DNA of 8,386 bases from a virus (taxonomy: Duplodnaviria > Heunggongvirae > Uroviricota > Caudoviricetes), in IMG/VR virus record IMGVR_UViG_2541047931_000004, positions 1-8,386 of that record; one strand, written 5' to 3'. The notes under the pieces were generated by a model. It had not been told where the DNA came from. It ran no database searches and worked only from the letters and a program-made list of their open reading frames with translations. A program made the translations under genes and the position numbers. This document shows, piece after piece, positions 1 to 8,386 of this stretch (within the stretch, counting starts at the first letter, position 1; every line of letters begins with the position of its first letter).

Positions 1-1284
1 TTACTTCTTCGCCTCTGCAACCACTTTACTACCCACGCCGCGGTTATTGTATTCCCACATGCGGTTGTAGTTAGTGTCATTCAGATTGCGCTGTATTTCG
101 TCGTTATCATCTACGCTGCCGGTATTACCCGCAAACGGACGATTAGAGATCACCGCATCGGCCCACGGTTTAGCCGTGTTAAAACCTTCGTTGATGGCGC
201 TATCACGGATCACCACCTGACCGTTGGTATTGGCATCAACATCCAGCGAGCGGCCCAGTTGCGCCACACCATCACCGAAAGCATTGAAACGGCTGTTTAC
301 GGCGAGGAAACCGTAGTAAATGTTGGACAGCGTAGCCGGTGCAAACACATACGCTTCTTGCTGAGTACGTGAGTTCACCACGCGGAATTCGGTGTTATCG
401 AACACCACTGCGCCGCGACCAGAAACGATATCCACATCCCCTTCAATGTAGCTGTTGGTCACCAGCGTACGCGGCTGACGATTCGTTTCCAGACGGTTCT
501 GCACACCGCTGTTGGTGACAAAGAAGGTGTTCTGACGACCGAGAATGTTAACGTTGTTAATCTGTACCTGGTCACCATCAGTACGCAGTGCCACCGCCGG
601 ATGGTTACCTGCATCTACGCTATCGCCCAGCGTGTTTTCGATGGTCAGATTTTGCAGTTGCAGGCCATTGTTTTGTGACCAGAAGACCGCAGAGCAGAGA
701 ACACCGATACTGTCGCTGCGTTTGCTCTGGCAGCTATCGTACATATACCACGCTGGTTTACCTGGCATATATTTGCCGCGCGGGTTGACGTCGTGACGCC
801 AGTCGGCAGGGCTCATGCCACCATCAAGGGAAAGCCCAATCTTCACATCAATCGGTTTTTCACCTGTACCGTACAGAGTAATTCCACCCGGAGCGGCAGG
901 GACATATACCGTTCCCTGATACTCACCAGGCATCACGGCAATATACTGGCGCTTGTTGGTACGCTTGATAATTGCCGCATCTACCGCCGCCTGAATCGTG
1001 GTATGCGTTACACCTTGAGTGCCCGCCGGGCCGACAACAAAGTCAGGTTGCGCAGGCAGGGTAATCAGGGAAGGATTCCACGCTGCAGCACCTGGTGTCA
1101 GGGATGAAAAATAGTGTTGAGCATCGAAATTCTGCGCTTCTTTTGCCGACAGAATCGGGCGAGAAGAGGTACCAGGCGCGGTTTGATCAGAAGGACGTTG
1201 ATCGGGCGGGGTTGAGCTACAGGCGGTCAGCGTCACGCCAAAAGCCAATGCCAGCGCCAGACGGGAAACTGAAAATGTGTTCAC
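1..1284 (-). CDS. ybhC: YbhC-like outer-membrane lipoprotein, pectinesterase-fold (CE8-like) putative acyl-CoA thioesterase; chromosomal gene flanking the prophage
   Basis: Complete 427-aa ORF, GTG start at 1284 with GGAG 6 nt upstream, TAA stop at 1..3. N-terminal lipoprotein signal with lipobox LTAC followed by SS. Pectinesterase-like motifs seen in the translation (GEYQG, PAVALR, LGRS). Sequence recognised from memory as E. coli YbhC, which lies beside lambda attB. Confidence 0.85.
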   Translation of the reverse strand: MNTFSVSRLALALAFGVTLTACSSTPPDQRPSDQTAPGTSSRPILSAKEAQNFDAQHYFSSLTPGAAAWNPSLITLPAQPDFVVGPAGTQGVTHTTIQAAVDAAIIKRTNKRQYIAVMPGEYQGTVYVPAAPGGITLYGTGEKPIDVKIGLSLDGGMSPADWRHDVNPRGKYMPGKPAWYMYDSCQSKRSDSIGVLCSAVFWSQNNGLQLQNLTIENTLGDSVDAGNHPAVALRTDGDQVQINNVNILGRQNTFFVTNSGVQNRLETNRQPRTLVTNSYIEGDVDIVSGRGAVVFDNTEFRVVNSRTQQEAYVFAPATLSNIYYGFLAVNSRFNAFGDGVAQLGRSLDVDANTNGQVVIRDSAINEGFNTAKPWADAVISNRPFAGNTGSVDDNDEIQRNLNDTNYNRMWEYNNRGVGSKVVAEAKK

Positions 1285-1330
1285 AGGTTGCTCCGGGCTA
1301 TGAAATAGAAAAATGAATCCGTTGAAGCCT

Positions 1331-1345
1331 GCTTTTTTATACTAA
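1331..1345. other. attL core (overlap region O), lambda-type
   Basis: Exact 15-bp GCTTTTTTATACTAA, 47 bp upstream of the ybhC start and about 75 bp from the int stop. Identical to the lambda att core as I recall it. Confidence 0.9.
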
Positions 1346-1425
1346 GTTGGCATTATAAAAAAGCATTGCTTATCAATTTGTTGCAACGAGCAGGTCACTA
1401 TCAGTCAAAATAAAATCATTATTTG
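1346..1425. promoter_or_regulatory. P' arm of attL: IHF H' site and three Int arm-type sites (P'1 to P'3)
   Basis: TATCAATTTGTTG at 1371..1383 fits the IHF consensus WATCAA-N4-TTR. AGGTCACTAT (1392..1401), CAGTCAAAAT (1402..1411) and AAAATCATTA (1412..1421) fit the Int arm-type consensus C/AAGTCACTAT. Matches the lambda P' arm from memory. Confidence 0.75.
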
Positions 1426-2489
1426 ATTTCAATTTTGTCCCACTCCCTGCCTCTGTCATCACGATACTGTGATGCCATGGTGTCCGACTTATGCCCGAGA
1501 AGATGTTGAGCAAATTTATCGCTTATCTGCTTCTCATAGAGTCTTGCAGACAAACTGCGCAACTCGTGAAAGGTTGGCGGATCTCCTTCGAAGGAGAGAC
1601 CTGATGCTTTTCGTGCGCGCATAAAATACCTTGATACTGTGCCGGATGAAAGCGGTTCGCGACGAGTAGATGCAATTATGGTTTCTCCGCCAAGAATCTC
1701 TTTGCATTTATCAAGTGTTTCCTTCATTGATATTCCGAGAGCATCAACATGCAATGCTGTTGGGATGGCAATTTTTACGCCTGTTTTGCTTTGCTCGACA
1801 TAAAGATATCCATCTACGATATCAGACCACTTCATTTCGCATAAATCACCAACTCGCTGCCCGGTAACAACAGCCAGTTCCATTGCAAGTCTTAACCAAC
1901 ATGGTGATGATTCTGCTGCTTGATAAATTTTCAGGTATTCGTCAGCCGTAAGCCTTGATCTCCTTACCTCTGATTTTGCTGCGCGAGTGGCAGCGACCGG
2001 GTTTGTTGTTATATGGCCTTCAGCTATTGCCTCTCGGAATGCATCGCTCAGTGTTGATCTGATTAACTTGGCTGACGCCGCCTTGCCCTCGTCTATGTAT
2101 CCATTGAGCATTGCCGCAATTTCTTTTGTGGTGATGTCTTCAAGTGGAGCATCAGGAAGACTCCTCCTTATTGCTTTAATTTTGCTCATGTAATTTATGA
2201 GTGTCTTCTGCTTGATTCCTCTGTTGGCGAGAATTTTTTCGTAGCGATCAAGCCATGAATGTAACGTAACAGAATTATCACTGTTGATTCTCGCCGTCAG
2301 AGGCTTGTGTTTGTGTCCTGAAAATAACTCAATGTTGGCCTGTATAGCTTCAGTGATTGCTATCCTCCTGTCTCTGCCTAATCCGAACTCTTTACCCGTC
2401 CTTGGGTCCCTGTAGCAGTAATATCCATTGTTTCTTATATAAAGGTTAGGGGGTAAATCCCGGCGCTCATGACTTCGCCTTCTTCCCAT
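1419..2489 (-). CDS. int: Tyrosine site-specific integrase, lambda Int (356 aa)
   Basis: 356-aa ORF starting MGRRRSHERRDLPPNLYIRNNGYYCYRDPRTGKEF, recognised as near-identical to lambda Int. Its first 23 nt overlap the end of xis, as in lambda. Confidence 0.97.
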   Translation of the reverse strand: MGRRRSHERRDLPPNLYIRNNGYYCYRDPRTGKEFGLGRDRRIAITEAIQANIELFSGHKHKPLTARINSDNSVTLHSWLDRYEKILANRGIKQKTLINYMSKIKAIRRSLPDAPLEDITTKEIAAMLNGYIDEGKAASAKLIRSTLSDAFREAIAEGHITTNPVAATRAAKSEVRRSRLTADEYLKIYQAAESSPCWLRLAMELAVVTGQRVGDLCEMKWSDIVDGYLYVEQSKTGVKIAIPTALHVDALGISMKETLDKCKEILGGETIIASTRREPLSSGTVSRYFMRARKASGLSFEGDPPTFHELRSLSARLYEKQISDKFAQHLLGHKSDTMASQYRDDRGREWDKIEIK

Positions 2490-2685
2490 TTCTGATCCTC
2501 TTCAAAAGGCTACCTGTTACTGGTCGATTTAAGTCAATCTTTACCGCTGATTCGTGGAACAGATACTCTCTTCCATCCTTAACCGGAGGAGGGAATATCC
2601 TGCACTCGCGTACCCATCGACGAACTGTTTCAAGGCTTCTTGGGCGTCGCTGGCGTGCGTTCCACTCCTGAAGTGTCAAGTACAT
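2467..2685 (-). CDS. xis: Excisionase Xis (72 aa)
   Basis: MYLTLQEWNARQRRPRSLETVRRWVRECRIFPPPVKDGREYLFHESAVKIDLNRPVTGSLLKRIRNGKKAKS, recognised as lambda Xis. Start taken at the internal ATG (2685) of the 85-aa six-frame ORF. Confidence 0.95.
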   Translation of the reverse strand: MYLTLQEWNARQRRPRSLETVRRWVRECRIFPPPVKDGREYLFHESAVKIDLNRPVTGSLLKRIRNGKKAKS

Positions 2686-2697
2686 CGCAAAGTCTCC

Positions 2698-2711
2698 GCA
2701 ATTACACGCAA
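2698..2711 (-). promoter_or_regulatory. cII-type activator site TTGC-N6-TTGC of the int promoter pI (-35 region)
   Basis: Minus strand reads TTGCGTGTAATTGC, ending 13 nt upstream of the xis ATG. This is the arrangement of lambda pI, whose transcript starts inside xis and so expresses int alone (established lambda knowledge). Confidence 0.6.
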
Positions 2712-2733
2712 GAAAAAGCCGCATTGATGCGGC
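2711..2733 (-). terminator. Putative intrinsic terminator just upstream of pI/xis
   Basis: On the minus strand, a 7-bp stem GCCGCAT/ATGCGGC with a 2-nt loop is followed by TTTTTCTT. Function not demonstrated. Confidence 0.4.
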
Positions 2734-2791
2734 GATGGTAGGTCTGGATATCTTGAGAAATGAACAGGCCTCATTGAGTGTGAGGCTGTGG

Positions 2792-3136
2792 TTAGTCCTT
2801 GCGTAGCTCGCTAATTCTTCTGTAAGTCTCTGGTGCTTTGTTTCCGTGTATCTTCATTTCAGACTTCAACAGAGCAACGAGGGAATCCCATTCGTTGAGG
2901 ATTCCTTTGAATGCCGGAACGCGCTTTGCAACCTTGTCGAATGAATCTCTGATTTCTGGAATCTGCTCAACAAGTGCAACGCATCGCCGGAAGTCTGCTG
3001 CGTCATGTGGAGCGCCGAAGTGATGACCATAGATATTTTTTTTCAGTCCACATGCGATTGAGGCAAGAGTTGCGCTACTGATGCCGACATCGCCAGTTGA
3101 TTGCCATTTCAAAACCTTCATAGCCAAATCTGACAT
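2792..3136 (-). CDS. Hypothetical phage protein (114 aa)
   Basis: ORF 2792..3163. Start preferred at 3136 (MSDLAMKVLKWQ) because GGAG lies 7 nt upstream; the ATG at 3163 overlaps the upstream stop (TGATG) and is the alternative. No family recognised. Confidence 0.6.
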   Translation of the reverse strand: MSDLAMKVLKWQSTGDVGISSATLASIACGLKKNIYGHHFGAPHDAADFRRCVALVEQIPEIRDSFDKVAKRVPAFKGILNEWDSLVALLKSEMKIHGNKAPETYRRISELRKD

Positions 3137-3162
3137 TTCTTGTCTCCAATAAAAAACCGCCA

Positions 3163-3330
3163 TCAGGCGTCTTGGTGTTCTTTCAGTTCTTCAATTCGAA
3201 TATTGGTTACGTCTGCATGCGCTATCTGCGCCCATATCATCCAGTGGTTATAGCAGTCGTTGATGTCCTCTGCTTCGATAACCCTGTCGAATGGCTCTCC
3301 ATTCCATTCACCTGTGACTCGGAAGTGCAT
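3163..3330 (-). CDS. Small hypothetical phage protein (55 aa), below the six-frame track cutoff
   Basis: Hand translation: MHFRVTGEWNGEPFDRVIEAEDINDCYNHWMIWAQIAHADVTNIRIEELKEHQDA. GGAG 7 nt upstream of the ATG; the stop overlaps the next start (TGATG). Weak recollection of a similar small protein near xis in lambdoid phages, unverified. Confidence 0.55.
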   Translation of the reverse strand: MHFRVTGEWNGEPFDRVIEAEDINDCYNHWMIWAQIAHADVTNIRIEELKEHQDA

Positions 3331-3340
3331 TTATCATCTC

Positions 3341-3368
3341 CATAAAACAAAACTCGCCGTAGCGAGTT
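3341..3368 (-). terminator. Putative intrinsic terminator between the DUF551-like gene and the 55-aa gene
   Basis: On the minus strand, stem AACTCGC / loop TACG / GCGAGTT followed by TTTGTTTTAT. Confidence 0.5.
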
Positions 3369-3430
3369 CAGATAAAAGAAATCCCCGCGAGTGCGAGGAT
3401 TGTTATTCACCTTTGACGGCAAGTTGCAGG

Positions 3431-4324
3431 TTAGCCACGGTTAACCTCCTGCGGCGGTTCTGGTAGAGGCATCCAGTGTGACGGTTTCCACGACGCACCA
3501 GGAATTATCCACCCATCATTAGCGTCAGGATGCCCCGGGATGTAAGTAGCCCATTTCATTCGCCAGTCACCTTTCCTGTCAAACTCCACGGCAACAAGAA
3601 CGGCTGTTTTGGTATTCGGCATTCGCTCACTACAGCTTATCCAACCATCCGGAGTTACCGGAACTTGCGGAATGGCTGTCTGCTCTCGAACGTCATTAGG
3701 CGCTATAGGTTCTGCTGCCAACTGACTGGCATATTTGTTAATGGTAACGATAAGCTCTTGCTCAGCCTCATCCAGACAATCACCGATACCTCGCCTGTCA
3801 CCGTCAAAATCATCGAAATCGGCACGAATCTTGGCAACCTTCTGGATTGCGGACAACACCTCACTAGGAATTACCGGATAGTTGGTTGACGTTTCCGCGA
3901 TTTCCCGAAAATTATTGGTTGACGAATTCTTGTTTTCCCGAAAGTTTCCGGACTGAAGCATGGCGGCGCGGCAGGCGTTCCAGCCTCTCACCTCTGCAAT
4001 AGCGGCAACAGCATCAACCGCGTACATGCTAAGAGGATTAGGCATTGGTTTTTCTTCCGGTACTACTGGAACGGGGGGAGCGGCGTAGACCTCAATAATT
4101 CCATTATCAATAGGCCATTCTCCATCCTTGAGGTAGTCACTTGTGCCGTCAACTTGCTGTTCTGCAATGTGGAATGCACCTATTGGTTTTGCTTCCAGCG
4201 ATGCCAGAGCAATTCGTGCCAGTTCTTCCGCTTCTTCTGCTGGCAGTACAACGTTGCTATCAGGTCCGTATGTTTCGCGCCACTGCTTGATTGTCAGCAG
4301 TCGCTCTTTGGTAATAGTGATCAT
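3431..4324 (-). CDS. DUF551-like domain phage protein (297 aa)
   Basis: C-terminal segment PDGWISCSERMPNTKTAVLVAVEFDRKGDWRMKWATY...WMPLPEPP resembles the DUF551 domain common in enterobacterial prophage proteins (from memory). AAGGA RBS; ATGA overlap with the upstream gene stop. Confidence 0.75.
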   Translation of the reverse strand: MITITKERLLTIKQWRETYGPDSNVVLPAEEAEELARIALASLEAKPIGAFHIAEQQVDGTSDYLKDGEWPIDNGIIEVYAAPPVPVVPEEKPMPNPLSMYAVDAVAAIAEVRGWNACRAAMLQSGNFRENKNSSTNNFREIAETSTNYPVIPSEVLSAIQKVAKIRADFDDFDGDRRGIGDCLDEAEQELIVTINKYASQLAAEPIAPNDVREQTAIPQVPVTPDGWISCSERMPNTKTAVLVAVEFDRKGDWRMKWATYIPGHPDANDGWIIPGASWKPSHWMPLPEPPQEVNRG

Positions 4325-4836
4325 GCCGCGTTTCCTTCTTTCTTATTAACAATTACACCGTCATATATTTCATTAAGGTGCCCTCTCAACTCCATGCGCC
4401 TTAATGCAGATAACATGTAATCGCATTCAACCTGCTTATTCCCAATAAAAGGTTTATCTTCAGGGTTACCCCAACAGCAATTCCCCTTGGGCCATCCATG
4501 TACTTTCCGTACTCTTCCGTTAACAACGTGAAGTAATCCCCAGCCGGAAGGTAAATCCTCAACTGAAATAATTCCCGGCTCACTAATAAAGAATCGCCAG
4601 TCGCCCATTCCAAGAGATGGATTTTTACGAAAACGCTTTTTTCTATCTGCCAACAAGTCAGCACGAGAACACTTCGCCTCTATCAGGCATGATGCTGAAT
4701 TTCTGAACCCCATAGCATCTGGCTGTTCTCCGGTACTGGTTACAGCTATAAAGCGGTCATGAAAACAAACCTTGAACCCGTTGCGCTTAAGGAACTTATA
4801 CGCAATCTGACAGAGTTCGCGGTGTGTTAACGCCAT
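4321..4836 (-). CDS. Putative PD-(D/E)XK nuclease-fold protein (171 aa), possibly MmcB-like
   Basis: Start taken at the internal ATG (MALTHRELCQIAYKF) with AAGGAG 7 nt upstream. Motif order helix with E (RELCQIAYKFLKRNG), then PD (GEQPDAMGF), then ExK (CLIEAKCS), consistent with the restriction-endonuclease-like fold. Family assignment is a guess. Confidence 0.7.
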   Translation of the reverse strand: MALTHRELCQIAYKFLKRNGFKVCFHDRFIAVTSTGEQPDAMGFRNSASCLIEAKCSRADLLADRKKRFRKNPSLGMGDWRFFISEPGIISVEDLPSGWGLLHVVNGRVRKVHGWPKGNCCWGNPEDKPFIGNKQVECDYMLSALRRMELRGHLNEIYDGVIVNKKEGNAA

Positions 4837-4837
4837 A

Positions 4838-5026
4838 TCACTCTCCTTTAGTGCGCAAGTGGTTTTTCCAGCGGTTTTGCGCCGCGCTGGGCTTTTTGCA
4901 AAAACCACAATCCATCATCCCGTAATATTTCATCAACCCCATCCGTCGGTTGCTGAGTCTCACCCACTGCCAGACGCCAGGAGCGTTTCTACGAACTAAC
5001 AGAATCTTTGCTTTACGGTTTTTCAT
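4838..5026 (-). CDS. Small basic ORF (62 aa), MKNRKAK copy 2
   Basis: MKNRKAKILLVRRNAPGVWQWVRLSNRRMGLMKYYGMMDCGFCKKPSAAQNRWKNHLRTKGE. Its start overlaps the stop of the upstream mini-ORF (ATGA), and its last codons contain the RBS of the nuclease gene. Weak RBS of its own; coding status uncertain. Confidence 0.35.
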   Translation of the reverse strand: MKNRKAKILLVRRNAPGVWQWVRLSNRRMGLMKYYGMMDCGFCKKPSAAQNRWKNHLRTKGE

Positions 5027-5199
5027 CTTACAGCGTACCCTTTCTTCCGCCTGTTCTGTGACGCAGTAGGCTTACGCTTTGCGGCAAAAGCCACCTGACC
5101 AAATGGATGGAGTACCGCTATCTTATGGTTGCTAATAACCAGCTCCACCACACGCACAGGTCGCTGTAAAAAAAGTCGTTTTGCCTTACGGTTTTTCAT
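5023..5199 (-). CDS. Small basic ORF (58 aa), MKNRKAK copy 1
   Basis: Hand translation: MKNRKAKRLFLQRPVRVVELVISNHKIAVLHPFGQVAFAAKRKPTASQNRRKKGYAVR. AGGAGA 8 nt upstream. Shares its first 7 residues and about 20 nt with the downstream 62-aa ORF. Coding status uncertain. Confidence 0.35.
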   Translation of the reverse strand: MKNRKAKRLFLQRPVRVVELVISNHKIAVLHPFGQVAFAAKRKPTASQNRRKKGYAVR

Positions 5200-5371
5200 C
5201 GCTTTGCTCTCCTGCGTCTCTTTGCTGCTCGTCGTGCCGCTGCAATACCGGTATGGCGGCGCTTTGGTGACGGGATGATGTTGTCAGCCATCAGTACATG
5301 TGGCTTTGCAATTAGCGCAGAAGCCCAAAAACGAGTCGGGTACGGTAACAAGCCGATACATGCCACACGCA

Positions 5372-5848
5372 TTACTCACCTCCTTTGATGCGAATGCCAG
5401 CGGTGCGTGGCACATTAACTTCCACGATGCGCACTGTTGGTTTGTACATCTCAATCGCTGTCAGCCAGTCAGCTCCTGTCATGCGCTTTTCCGCATCGCC
5501 ATTAGTCCACTGAACCGGTACACCAATAGCCTTCATCGCGATTTCTATTTCCCCGGCAATGGCGCTTTTTCCGCAACCAGTAAAACCAGATACAACGACA
5601 AGAACTTCGCCTTTTGCTGGTTTTATTTCCCGCGTCTCCATCTCTGCAATTCGGCATATAGAATCAATATTTGTGTCTTCTAGGCGTTTAACTTCATCCA
5701 ACAATGCCAACGCGATATCTGGCGAAAAGTGCTTCATAAAATCGTTAAGCGCATTAATTCGCTGATCGAAAGGCATTACAGGTGCTTCACCAGCAATTTT
5801 TGTTTTTTCAGCGATTTCACGAAGCTTTTGATAATCAATCTTGCTCAC
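5372..5848 (-). CDS. Putative Ead/Ea22-like family protein (158 aa) with a C-terminal Walker-A-like motif
   Basis: GTG start at 5848 preferred: AAGGAGG 6 nt upstream and GTGA overlap with the upstream stop; the six-frame start at 5869 has no RBS. The N-terminus [15 protein letters not shown] resembles Ea22-like proteins as I recall them. C-terminal [28 protein letters not shown] fits GxxxxGKS. Confidence 0.65.
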
Positions 5849-6012
5849 TGGTTGCCTCCTTTGCGCCACATCGCATTCAGATATTTGTTTTGATTCACTG
5901 ATGGAAAAGAATTTCTCTTAAGCAATTCCTCTCTCGATGGCATTGGCTTTACGCGTTGGCGAATAATCATTTCTGCCGGAAGAATGCCGGGATTGTATGC
6001 AAGTCCTCTCAT
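5845..6012 (-). CDS. Small hypothetical protein (55 aa)
   Basis: [55 protein letters not shown]. Start at 6012 chosen for GAGG 8 nt upstream; an alternative ATG at 6030 overlaps the upstream gene by 8 nt. Stop overlaps the Ea22-like GTG start. Confidence 0.4.
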
Positions 6013-6022
6013 GGTAAATTCC

Positions 6023-6319
6023 TCAGTCATTACTGATAGCGCCATAGCGTGAGCGGTAATTACGCAGGCGCGGGTCGATATATTCAGGGAAGTGGGTATA
6101 TGTGGCTTTGCGGAATGGTCGGATTGATGTTTCGTTTGTTCGGTCCTTCTCATTTTTTAACGCGAGTTGTATATCGCGTCGGTACATCCGTTCTGCTTTT
6201 GTTTCTGGTGGCAGATCGATAAACGTGTCGAAAATGTTTTTGATATTTTCCAGCACCTCCGCCTTGGAGCTACCGGAGCAATTGCGCGGGGCATCCGCAC
6301 CATACAGAGGCGCTGGCAT
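6023..6319 (-). CDS. Hypothetical phage protein (98 aa)
   Basis: ORF begins 23 nt after the SSB-like gene stop, with a weak AGG RBS. Charged, lysine- and arginine-rich. No family recognised. Confidence 0.55.
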
Positions 6320-6342
6320 AATGGGAGCCTTATTTTCAGTAA

Positions 6343-6930
6343 TCAGAAAGCAGGGTAATCGTTCTGGCTGTAACCATAATCATCTGCATGATTCTGGCTT
6401 ACGTTTTTAGAGCGATTGTCTTTATCTTTGAGATTGGCAACCATGTTGGCGATAGTTTCTGGTTGCTTGCCTTCTGCCTTTTCTTTAAGGGTTTGACCTG
6501 TTTGTGCAATAAACGGGATGCGTATTTCCATCTGGTAGTTGTCTGCGCCAGTCTTTTTGTTTGTAGTTAATACTTTCTGGAGCACTAACCCGATTTTCTT
6601 TCCATGAAATTCAGGTGCAACAAATTTACTGGCGGAAACCATATGCTGCGTTAATTGTCCAATCCCGGCACACCCCATCATGGCGTGAACGACATTTGCG
6701 CCAAATTTGTTTTCCGTTCCGTCATTTTTCTGAACACAGACGCTAAGATATTGGATTTTACGTCCGTCGTCGGATTCTCCAGAAAACTCAATAAATTTGG
6801 CTCCTTTTTCTGATTGCTTTAGTTCTGCTTCAGTAATGGTAATGATATGGGCGCCAGTTTCGTTAATAAAACCACCTTGCCCTGCGGTCAGTGCTGCTTC
6901 TTCGTTATAAGTAAAAATCACGTTGCTCAT
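6343..6930 (-). CDS. Putative phage ssDNA-binding-like partner of Sak4 (195 aa)
   Basis: ATGA overlap with the Sak4-like gene stop; AAGGAA RBS. C-terminal tail DDYGYSQNDYPAF is acidic/aromatic and ends in Phe, like the C-terminal tips of E. coli SSB and T7 gp2.5. No canonical SSB motifs recognised; function inferred from tail and context. Confidence 0.6.
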   Translation of the reverse strand: MSNVIFTYNEEAALTAGQGGFINETGAHIITITEAELKQSEKGAKFIEFSGESDDGRKIQYLSVCVQKNDGTENKFGANVVHAMMGCAGIGQLTQHMVSASKFVAPEFHGKKIGLVLQKVLTTNKKTGADNYQMEIRIPFIAQTGQTLKEKAEGKQPETIANMVANLKDKDNRSKNVSQNHADDYGYSQNDYPAF

Positions 6931-7607
6931 GCGGCGTTTTCCTTAATTTGATGAACATTATTGATGCCGTAGTAATCACAAACAGTGGCATCGACGAAAG
7001 AGAGATCGTTATCAATCTCATTGGAATCAAACATTCCCATTGGGGATTTGACAGTGTCTGCACCGTTGTTTTTCGTGGTGAAAAAGAACTGGTCATCGCG
7101 GGTAAGAGTGCGAAGAACTATAGTAAACATGCCTTCGACAGTGATTTTCTCGTCCAGCATTTTGCCGATAGTTTTCATTTTCACGCGCCCCATAGGGGTT
7201 TCTTCGGTATGTGCAAGAAAATAGACTCTCAGGTCATCAGGTGCATCCTGTGCAGCCTTAATCACCTCCCATGCGTGGCGGCCTATCTCAGTAAATTTAT
7301 CAAACGATTTTTCTTCTGAGCGGCGCATAAACTCATTGCTCATCACATACTGGAAGTCATCAACAATAACGATTCTTTTTCCGTATTCGTGAGCACGCTT
7401 AATTACAGCAACTATTACGTCCCATTTGTCAGTGGTAACTACGGTTCCTTTTTTTGCTCTGGCATCCCATGCAAGCCAGTCTTTTGATTTAAATGGTAGC
7501 GGCTTGCCTATTGGTTTTATAAGTATTGCTTCCTCTGGATTGATATTTCTCATGCTGGTTGATTTTCCGGTGCCAGATTCACCGAGTATTAATGTCGCAG
7601 TTCCCAT
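6927..7607 (-). CDS. Sak4-like RecA-fold recombination ATPase (AAA_24-type core, 226 aa)
   Basis: Walker A GESGTGKST at residues 9..17 and Walker B-like RIVIVDD. Size and position match Sak4-type single-strand annealing proteins of phages. GAGG RBS 6 nt upstream. Confidence 0.8.
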   Translation of the reverse strand: MGTATLILGESGTGKSTSMRNINPEEAILIKPIGKPLPFKSKDWLAWDARAKKGTVVTTDKWDVIVAVIKRAHEYGKRIVIVDDFQYVMSNEFMRRSEEKSFDKFTEIGRHAWEVIKAAQDAPDDLRVYFLAHTEETPMGRVKMKTIGKMLDEKITVEGMFTIVLRTLTRDDQFFFTTKNNGADTVKSPMGMFDSNEIDNDLSFVDATVCDYYGINNVHQIKENAA

Positions 7608-7615
7608 AATTTGCC

Positions 7616-7804
7616 TCAGAATGGTAATTCGGATGGGCAGGAAAGAAATTCGCGCTCATTCATGCGCTCTCTTTGCGCCTGCCATAAACAAAGTTGTTTC
7701 TTTGATTTATCTCCCGCTTTACGCCAGTAACGAGCCTCAGCAATGTGATATTCTCTTTTTAATCGACTTAACTCTGGAGTTTTCGCCAGTTCTACCGGAA
7801 TCAT
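7616..7804 (-). CDS. Hypothetical phage protein (62 aa) occupying the position of lambda gam
   Basis: Start at the second ATG (MIPVELAKTPELSRLKREYHIAEARYWRK) with GGAGG 5 nt upstream; ATGA overlap with the kil-like stop. Not similar to lambda Gam as I recall it. Confidence 0.55.
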   Translation of the reverse strand: MIPVELAKTPELSRLKREYHIAEARYWRKAGDKSKKQLCLWQAQRERMNEREFLSCPSELPF

Positions 7805-7914
7805 TTTGACCTCCATTTTCTGTAGGCTTCTACGGCTTCACGAAACATCTTTTCATCGCCAATAAAAGTGGCGATAGTGAATTTAGTCTGGATAGCCATA
7901 AGTGTTTTATCCAT
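7801..7914 (-). CDS. kil: Kil-like host-killing protein (37 aa), C-terminus diverged from lambda
   Basis: MDKTLMAIQTKFTIATFIGDEKMFREAVEAYRKWRSK. The first 27 or so residues match lambda Kil (MDQTLMAIQTKFTIATFIGDEKMFREAV) from memory. AGGAG RBS inside the cIII 3' end; overlaps cIII by 8 nt. Confidence 0.6.
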   Translation of the reverse strand: MDKTLMAIQTKFTIATFIGDEKMFREAVEAYRKWRSK

Positions 7915-8047
7915 TTTTGGGAACTCCTGGCTGATTAAGTATGTCGATAAGGCGTTTCCATCCATCACGTAATTTACGTGTGATTCGTTCAAGTAAAGAT
8001 TCGGAAGGGCAGCCAGCAACAGGCCACCCTGCAATGGCATATTGCAT
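7907..8047 (-). CDS. cIII: CIII, FtsH-inhibitor regulator of lysogeny (46 aa, C-terminally shorter than the 54-aa lambda CIII)
   Basis: MQYAIAGWPVAGCPSESLLERITRKLRDGWKRLIDILNQPGVPKNG matches lambda CIII from memory, including the core helix ESLLERITRKLRDGWKRLIDIL. AAGGAG 6 nt upstream of the ATG. Confidence 0.85.
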   Translation of the reverse strand: MQYAIAGWPVAGCPSESLLERITRKLRDGWKRLIDILNQPGVPKNG

Positions 8048-8110
8048 GGTGTGCTCCTTATTTATACATAACGAAAAACGCCTCGAGTGAAGCGTTATTG
8101 GTATGCATAT

Positions 8111-8134
8111 AAAAAGGCCCTCACACTGGAGGGC
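8111..8134 (-). terminator. Putative intrinsic terminator upstream of cIII
   Basis: On the minus strand, stem GCCCTC / loop CAGTGT / GAGGGC followed by CTTTTTAT. Position resembles the lambda tL region before cIII (recalled, not verified). Confidence 0.5.
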
Positions 8135-8227
8135 AAAGAAGATTTCCAATAATCAGAACAAGTCGGCTCCTGTTTAGTTACGAGCGACATTGCTCACATA
8201 GCAGACTCGTAAATCTGCTATAGGCGC

Positions 8228-8386
8228 TTATTCGCATCGCATGACAACATCAAATTTTTCGAGATTACTTTGTCGCAACAATCCTTCTTCTACGCGGTCA
8301 GCTTTTCTATAATTATCAAATTCGAAATGTTTAATTACTTCTTTTGTTTCTCGCTCTATAACTTCAACGATGTATTTCTTATTCAT
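8228..8386 (-). CDS. Small AT-rich hypothetical ORF (52 aa); ATG is the last 3 nt of the window, so RBS and true start are not visible
   Basis: Hand translation: MNKKYIVEVIERETKEVIKHFEFDNYRKADRVEEGLLRQSNLEKFDVVMRCE, stop TAA at 8228..8230. Local AT content is clearly higher than the rest of the window. Could extend beyond the window. Confidence 0.35.
   Translation of the reverse strand: MNKKYIVEVIERETKEVIKHFEFDNYRKADRVEEGLLRQSNLEKFDVVMRCE

Follow-up and report, generated by a model that had tools for sequence, protein, structure and literature searches.

The DNA examined here (the window) is an 8,386-nucleotide stretch, positions 1 to 8,386 of the IMG/VR virus record IMGVR_UViG_2541047931_000004, and it constitutes the left arm of a lambda-like Escherichia coli prophage integrated at the lambda attachment site beside ybhC. 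Two adjacent minus-strand genes of its early-left operon encode proteins of 171 and 297 amino acids. On balance, we think it somewhat probable that the first is a metal-dependent, MmcB/Hjc-like endonuclease whose substrates are branched or damaged DNA, that the second is an independent protein carrying a DUF551 domain, and that the two do not form a dedicated pair. This interpretation is supported by residue selection in the nuclease family, by the replication and recombination genes found near its homologs, by the fact that the pairing is not conserved, and by the placement of both genes in the operon. A sequence-only reading of the region had noted the two open reading frames (ORFs) and the ATGA overlap that joins them, and all are present (Table 1).

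A predicted nuclease related to MmcB and Hjc

A model of the 171-residue protein generated by AlphaFold2 (AF2) from 35 homologs (predicted local distance difference test score, pLDDT, 85.6; predicted template modeling score, pTM, 0.80) has a helix at residues 5-18, strands at 22-26, 41-45, and 48-54, a helix at 58-65, and a strand at 80-85. This is the PD-(D/E)XK core fold (helix, three strands, helix, strand), and structure prediction, which the sequence-only reading had named as a check of the nuclease core, thus returned the canonical element order. Beyond the core, the model continues with a hairpin (100-113) and then a long helix (134-151). The motif takes the form Q-P-D40 ... E53-A-K55, in which the catalytic aspartate lies at the start of strand 2 and the (D/E)xK signature lies within strand 3, and this arrangement is conserved across the family. 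The order proposed earlier from the letters, PD followed by ExK, holds, but the gap between D and E is 12 residues rather than about 15. As read from secondary-structure positions and alignments, D40, E53, and K55 are predicted to occupy the canonical PD-(D/E)XK positions, which bears out the earlier description of the first gene as nuclease-like.

The signal of this motif is much stronger than chance would give, and the family to which the protein belongs is large. A HMMER pass with a profile of the 171-residue protein over 1.84 billion representatives recovered 3303 clusters at 50% identity with E <= 0.001, and 2447 with E <= 1e-10. Residue counts were taken from the 147 best representatives. 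Among these, the three predicted catalytic residues are nearly always retained (D40, 143/144; E53, 145/146; K55, 145/146), as are D60 (146/146), D64 (145/147), K67 (146/146), R70 (146/146), R81 (146/147), W99 (138/140), E137 (128/131), and R146 (117/130). The earlier proposal also included a glutamate in the first helix. E7 does fall within the predicted first helix, but an E or D is present there in only 92 of 133 relatives, and the strongly conserved N-terminal positions are instead H5 (129/133), an acidic residue (E/D) at 27 (138/139), and E37 (142/144). The basic residues R58, K67, R70, R81, R146, and R147 are near-invariant as well. From these alignments, the kept active site and the many conserved basic residues would argue for an active, nucleic-acid-binding enzyme.

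The closest described relatives are MmcB-like proteins (PF06319, formerly DUF1052/COG5321), represented by Caulobacter crescentus MmcB and by 3dnx, which is SPO1766 of Ruegeria pomeroyi. A family profile built from diverse members matches the 3dnx sequence at E 1.6e-4, and the aligned part of 3dnx scores PF06319 at E 1.2e-30. When the nuclease family was compared by hhalign with 26 MmcB proteins, the alignment had a probability of 94% (E 1.4e-7) over 83 columns, with D40 opposite D39 of the MmcB family and E53-x-K55 opposite E53-C-K55. The motifs SRxDF, DxK, RxF, and LPxxxGL are common to both families in this alignment. A Foldseek search against viral models likewise retrieved proteins named MmcB-like at 5.5e-7 to 2.9e-5, such that homology to a bona fide MmcB-like member is found by both profile-profile and structure comparison. 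DUF1052/PF06319 has been placed beside the archaeal resolvases within PD-(D/E)XK (PMC1189080; PMC3424549, which lists 3dnx), and MmcB has been described as an endonuclease of the PD-(D/E)XK type that guards Caulobacter against mitomycin C and cisplatin (PMC9578287).

A second likeness is to archaeal Hjc (PF01870; 1hh1, 2eo0), with which the window protein has the PD-(D/E)XK core in common. The same family profile matches Hjc weakly (E 0.36) and in exact register, with D40/E53/K55 corresponding to Hjc D42/E55/K57, and the S-R that follows K55 also aligns with Hjc K57-S-R. Hjc structures are the top Foldseek matches in the PDB, though these are weak. In a Pfam scan of 31 relatives, sub-threshold matches to Hjc were seen in 16 and to the MmcB-like model in 9 (E <= 1). 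The best Hjc E-values among relatives were 0.008 and 1.3e-4 in two scans, and one relative scored 13.3 bits against a cut-off of 21.1.

The window nuclease differs from the MmcB-like proteins in several respects. It is about 22% identical to 3dnx, and its family has its own invariant residues relative to MmcB (H5, E37, W99, E137, and R146/R147). Members are found on phages, prophages, and conjugative elements of Gammaproteobacteria and other hosts; PF06319 proteins, by contrast, are for the most part encoded on alphaproteobacterial chromosomes (PMC3424549). The window gene belongs to a phage early-left operon, unlike mmcB, which has been described as SOS-regulated, with a role in tolerance of mitomycin C and cisplatin damage that is known for Caulobacter MmcB only (PMC9578287). 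By profile alignment and predicted structure, the 171-residue protein appears to be a divergent, unmodelled branch of the known PD-(D/E)XK superfamily, on the MmcB/Hjc side. It is identical to GenBank ERB31039.1 (G958_00777, E. coli UMEA 3271-1) and falls in PHROG 9263/631, both of which are labelled "unknown function".

Distribution and gene context of the nuclease

The nuclease gene is present in 931 of 5426 complete E. coli genomes (910 at a coverage of at least 80%). Plasmids, including P1-like plasmids, account for 250 of the 1299 places at which it occurs in E. coli. By tblastn, it is also found in 642 phage records, among them Stx-converting (Shiga toxin-converting) phages, Klebsiella and Salmonella phages, Vibrio siphoviruses, and Kuttervirus and other Ackermannviridae. 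A profile scan of a genome collection with an alignment of closer homologs yielded 33 loci, whose hosts range from Gammaproteobacteria to an alphaproteobacterial metagenome-assembled genome and Flavobacterium.

Homologs of about 205 residues reside within the replication modules of two strictly lytic phages. The gene for one, Cba120 orf107 (locus L005, 3980-4597), overlaps the start of a primase gene, and the other, Vibrio phage MAR10 gp063 (locus L006, 3866-4480), follows genes for a DNA polymerase, a primase-helicase, and an SNF2-type helicase. Neighbors of the more distant viral and chromosomal homologs include C5, Dam, and N6 DNA methylases, NinB, NinG, RusA, DnaB, single-stranded DNA-binding protein (SSB), dATP/dGTP pyrophosphohydrolase, integrases, antiterminator Q, and F-type conjugation proteins. 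The common theme of these neighborhoods is DNA metabolism on mobile elements, and there is no single recurring partner gene.

Some additional arrangements were observed. The F-type conjugation neighbors, seen at some of loci L183-L200, are TraC, TraG, and TraI. One 428-residue protein (P0134) has a TniB-like AAA domain fused to the nuclease domain. A 245-residue Salmonella fusion (P0085; also P0087 and P0096) joins an Ead/Ea22 N-terminal segment (residues 3-66) to a nuclease domain (62-220). These Ead/Ea22 fusions imply that the nuclease can be C-terminal cargo on a scaffold that carries DUF551 in Ea22 V2 (PMC10834534).

The 297-residue protein and its DUF551 domain

The 297-residue protein is identical to the database protein G958_00776 (E. 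coli UMEA 3271-1; P0268). Entries that are 100% identical are named hypothetical, DUF551 domain-containing, or Eaa protein, and phage records use "EaA protein". Judged by its PHROG matches, the protein consists of three modules, which span residues 1-92, 93-226, and 227-292 (Table 1). The sequence-only reading had expected PF04448 at the C-terminus, and the third module indeed matches this model at 77.1 bits, against a gathering cut-off of 22, over profile positions 1-68 of 68.

In the window, the DUF551 domain begins with WISCSERMP and ends with SHWMPLPEPP. An alignment of 27 DUF551 variants exhibits the same pattern: W-I-x-C-S-E-R-M-P and T-H-W-M-P-L-P-x-P-P are conserved at the two ends, and the stretch between them is hypervariable, in length as well as in sequence. 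When the window DUF551 segment is matched to E. coli DNA, many of the matches span the ends only, as if these were recombination joints for swapping the core. DUF551 is a portable domain whose function is not known and that also occurs in Ea22 variant V2, YfdS, and a MazZ-type pyrophosphohydrolase (PMC10834534, PMC4776307). Like Ea22 V2 of Stx phages, CPS-53 YfdS, and the EaA of P22 and lambdoid phages, the window protein carries DUF551 as a C-terminal module, and the N-termini of these proteins are unrelated (PMC10834534, PMC4776307). Its particular combination of N-terminal and middle modules is one mosaic of many among DUF551 proteins. Perhaps DUF551 serves as an exchangeable binding module, although this is speculation.

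An AF2 model of the 297-residue protein from 18 close homologs had a pLDDT of 36.5 and was unusable, and a single-sequence search found no solved DUF551 structure. Matches to LAMTOR1 that emerged when the 27-variant DUF551 profile was run against solved structures were at chance level. A PADLOC PglZ match (residues 14-96, 15.8 bits, E 8.4e-4) is partial and was taken as noise. Beyond the papers cited here, we found no functional data in the literature on EaA, DUF551, or phage MmcB-like proteins.

Proposed function and alternative explanations

The following sequence of events would account for these observations. Infection or induction would bring both genes under the early-left promoter, as suggested by their position and strand. 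They would be co-transcribed, and the coupling of their translation can be read directly from the overlap; the reason is that the whole operon is packed in this manner. The nuclease would most likely hold a divalent metal ion with D40 and E53, assisted by E37 and D27, and would use K55 in hydrolyzing DNA phosphodiester bonds, which would amount to metal-dependent DNA cleavage. Its substrate would be branched or damaged DNA that arises during phage replication, recombination, or induction. This choice of substrate is suggested by the MmcB/Hjc relationship and by gene context, and it is the weakest step of the mechanism. The 297-residue protein would function independently as a three-module protein.

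Several results weigh against this interpretation. The 171-residue window protein passes no Pfam or NCBIfam model, and those for MmcB-like and VRR-NUC proteins are no exception. The sequence-only reading had predicted matches of these kinds, and although MmcB-like proteins did prove to be the closest described relatives, neither model is passed. The protein has no match to PF06319 even at E <= 10, and the best relative reaches E 0.0027, which is short of the gathering threshold. Nor is the threshold of PF01870 (Hjc) reached, and the window protein does not match that model. The relatives, too, match the Hjc and MmcB-like models below threshold only. A Foldseek search against the PDB gave no match at E <= 0.001, and 3dnx was outside the top 50. 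Furthermore, the genes around the homologs are varied and do not point to a particular substrate. Finally, the N-terminal module of the 297-residue protein recurs beside nuclease homologs, in either order, and some functional link may exist between them.

It is conceivable, though rather unlikely in our view, that the nuclease is an accessory gene for conflict (superinfection exclusion, defense against phages or plasmids, or counter-defense) and does not serve the phage's own DNA metabolism. Its gene is part of the "ea" region, a dispensable and highly mosaic stretch in which accessory genes gather, its distribution among E. coli genomes is patchy and extends to P1-like plasmids, and the PD-(D/E)XK fold is common to many restriction and defense nucleases. 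DNA methylase genes also make up 6 of the 81 ORFs that neighbor distant homologs, with more cases in further loci. In contrast, the nuclease has no match among the PADLOC-DB v2 defense profiles at E <= 0.1, its nearest relatives are repair and resolvase enzymes rather than restriction enzymes, and homologs reside in the replication modules of strictly lytic phages. The roles in anti-restriction or superinfection exclusion that had been raised earlier thus gained no positive support. A restriction-modification reading, which the methylases near distant homologs might invite, was rejected for the window because no methylase is encoded there.

A more tentative idea, to which we assign a low likelihood, is that this mobile-element nuclease family has a job unlike that of cellular MmcB. 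For example, it might clear crosslinks or stalled or branched structures from phage DNA when damage triggers induction. Such a nuclease may work with the EaA N-terminal module rather than with DUF551, which would then be an exchangeable target-binding cassette. If this is true, repair during induction would be relevant to the survival of Stx prophages when mitomycin C induces them.

We consider it quite improbable that the nuclease is the Holliday-junction resolvase of the phage, playing the part that RusA, Rap/NinG, T7 endonuclease I, and Hjc play elsewhere. The exact alignment of its catalytic residues with those of Hjc, the sub-threshold Pfam matches of its relatives, and the weak Foldseek ranking described above all point in this direction, and the gene is located downstream of a Sak4/SSB recombination module. 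However, the bona fide resolvases NinG and RusA co-occur with homologs in several loci, which argues against a role identical to that of Hjc.

The proposal that the two genes form a dedicated two-gene module, in which the 297-residue partner targets, regulates, or neutralizes the nuclease, is doubtful to a still greater degree. The ATGA overlap would give matched expression of the two proteins, and many near-identical E. coli prophages have a DUF551 gene after the nuclease (12 of the 20 top-ranked matches). The pairing was examined in 79 viral loci with a nuclease homolog of 40-75% identity and, in the reverse direction, from the N-terminal module of the 297-residue protein, which occurs in 77 loci. 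A DUF551 ORF is directly downstream of the nuclease homolog in only 3 of the 79 loci. A 4-nucleotide overlap of the nuclease homolog with some downstream ORF is common, but these partners vary from 50 to 406 residues, and the lytic-phage homologs have no such neighbor. The N-terminal module is present in 27 of the 79 nuclease loci (among L007-L041, L058, and L059), a raw count uncorrected for any background rate of this module. In 12 of them it directly follows the nuclease homolog, in 6 it directly precedes it, and in the other 9 it lies within about 2 kb. Conversely, the nuclease lies within 3 kb in only 13 of the 77 module loci, and 37 of the 77 module-bearing ORFs end in DUF551.

The three pieces are also distributed differently among the 5426 E. 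coli genomes. Matches to the N-terminal module occur in 1135 genomes, only 109 of them at a coverage of at least 80%, and the window DUF551 segment reaches that coverage in 645. A nuclease-DUF551 operon is therefore not conserved across divergent relatives, given the counts in both directions and the unequal prevalence of its parts. In addition, ATGA-type overlaps join most genes from 5869 to 3431, so that coupling is a property of the operon rather than of this pair. The functional pair put forward by the sequence-only reading is not borne out, and the adjacency of the nuclease and DUF551 genes most plausibly reflects the mosaic packing of a region prone to recombination.

Finally, a nuclease fold that does not cut, and instead serves in DNA binding or regulation, is very improbable: PD-(D/E)XK folds are at times reused as binding domains (PMC3424549), and the usual first-helix glutamate is only moderately conserved, but the near-invariance of D40, E53, and K55 in the 147 representatives of the 3303-cluster family is expected of a maintained active site.

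Annotation and significance

In every RefSeq genome inspected, the Prokaryotic Genome Annotation Pipeline (PGAP) calls the intact 171-residue ORF a 179-nucleotide "frameshifted" pseudogene, with or without a 110-residue C-terminal coding sequence. The copies in the window (4321-4836) and at L001 (4966-5481), L003 and L004 (4001-4516 in each), and L167 (2501-3016) all translate uninterrupted. Because D40, E53, and K55 fall within the part labelled as a pseudogene, this annotation keeps its catalytic half out of view in protein databases. Truncated versions of 95-111 residues are abundant there and form a 645-member cluster.

Both proteins are already in databases as hypothetical proteins, and in this sense the finding is largely ordinary. 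What it adds is a predicted fold and a probable chemistry for a common, unnamed phage family that has no Pfam or NCBIfam model. Among complete E. coli genomes, 17% have a member of this family, with Shiga-toxin prophages and P1-like plasmids among its carriers, and its range extends to Kuttervirus and Vibrio phages. A tempting "nuclease plus partner" system can also be struck from consideration for lack of support.

Organization of the early-left region

Together, the exact lambda att core and the cIII thermoregulator RNA element establish where the prophage ends and which way the early-left operon runs; from cIII to int, all features lie on the minus strand. The positions and strand of int/xis, the Sak4/SSB genes, and cIII place the nuclease and 297-residue protein genes in the "ea" stretch between xis and the recombination module. 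This agrees with the earlier assignment of the pair to the location where lambda carries non-essential accessory genes. The position, orientation, and dense packing match those of the lambda exo-xis "ea" region (ea8.5, ea22, orf73), as does the presence of an Ead/Ea22-like gene upstream. No sequence relation of either gene to lambda ea8.5 or ea22 was seen, where the lambda region was not directly compared.

Table 1. Features of the 8,386-nucleotide window, listed by position
Feature	Position	Strand	Basis or remark
ybhC	1-1284	minus	ORF list and database naming
Lambda att core GCTTTTTTATACTAA	1331-1345		Exact match; adjoins ybhC
int and xis	1419-2724	minus	ORF list and named relatives
Two terminator-like hairpins with T-runs	3401-3380 and 3369-3350	minus	Consensus scan only
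297-residue "EaA"-type gene	3431-4324	minus	ORF list
DUF551 (residues 227-292)	3449-3646	minus	PF04448, E 2e-21
Middle module (residues 93-226)	3647-4048	minus	phrog_14306, E 1.1e-67; mostly helical prediction, low confidence
N-terminal module "eaN" (residues 1-92)	4049-4324	minus	phrog_3323/660/5117
ATGA overlap	4321-4324	minus	Plus-strand tcat; nuclease-gene stop overlaps start of 297-residue gene
171-residue nuclease gene	4321-4836	minus	ATG at 4836
Predicted catalytic codons D40, E53, K55	4717-4719, 4678-4680, 4672-4674	minus	Aligned to Hjc and MmcB
Shine-Dalgarno-like AAGGAGA	4842-4848	minus	5 nt upstream of ATG 4836
Small basic ORF (62 residues)	4838-5026	minus	ORF list; third of three in tandem
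Small basic ORF (58 residues)	5023-5199	minus	ORF list; second of three in tandem
Small basic ORF (58 residues)	5196-5372	minus	ORF list; first of three in tandem
Ead/Ea22-like gene	5372-5869	minus	Pfam Ead_Ea22, E 1.6e-6
SSB-like protein	6343-6930	minus	ORF list and PHROG
Sak4-like ATPase/annealing protein	6927-7607	minus	ORF list and PHROG; recombination module of Sak4 type
Lambda cIII thermoregulator RNA element (RF01804)	8002-8060	minus	88.5 bits

From 5869 down to 3431, consecutive genes overlap by 1 or 4 nucleotides or are 1 base apart. The stop codon of the upstream 62-residue ORF (4838-4840) ends one base before the nuclease ATG, and a GAAGGA within the 3' end of the nuclease gene precedes the ATG of the second gene. 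The mechanical ORF list also offers a 195-residue form of the nuclease from GTG 4908. This start was rejected because it overlaps the upstream 62-residue ORF, because homologs start at or near MALTH, and because a strong ribosome-binding site lies ahead of ATG 4836.

The three small basic ORFs are linked to each other by 4-nucleotide overlaps and gave no match in Pfam and PADLOC scans. The two proximal to the nuclease gene both begin with MKNRKAK and are paralogous (37% identity, E 5e-10). The Ead/Ea22-like protein has an Ea22 N-terminal segment at residues 9-73 and a Walker-A-like GFTGCGKS in its C-terminal half; against NCBIfam, it gave weak, sub-threshold matches to P-loop kinases only. A 98-residue ORF (6023-6319, minus strand) may be an anti-RecBCD gene, judging by position only with the sequences not aligned: strain CE10 has a 98-residue "phage anti-RecBCD protein" at the equivalent place below the SSB gene.

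A hairpin terminator had also been proposed to follow the two genes. Two terminator-like hairpins with T-runs are present 30-80 nucleotides beyond the stop of the 297-residue gene, in the gap before the next ORF (3163-3330), but the number of such sites in the region 2700-6000 (6, versus 3.6 with a standard deviation of 1.8 in shuffles) is not clearly above expectation. N-antiterminated early-left transcripts would pass through such hairpins.

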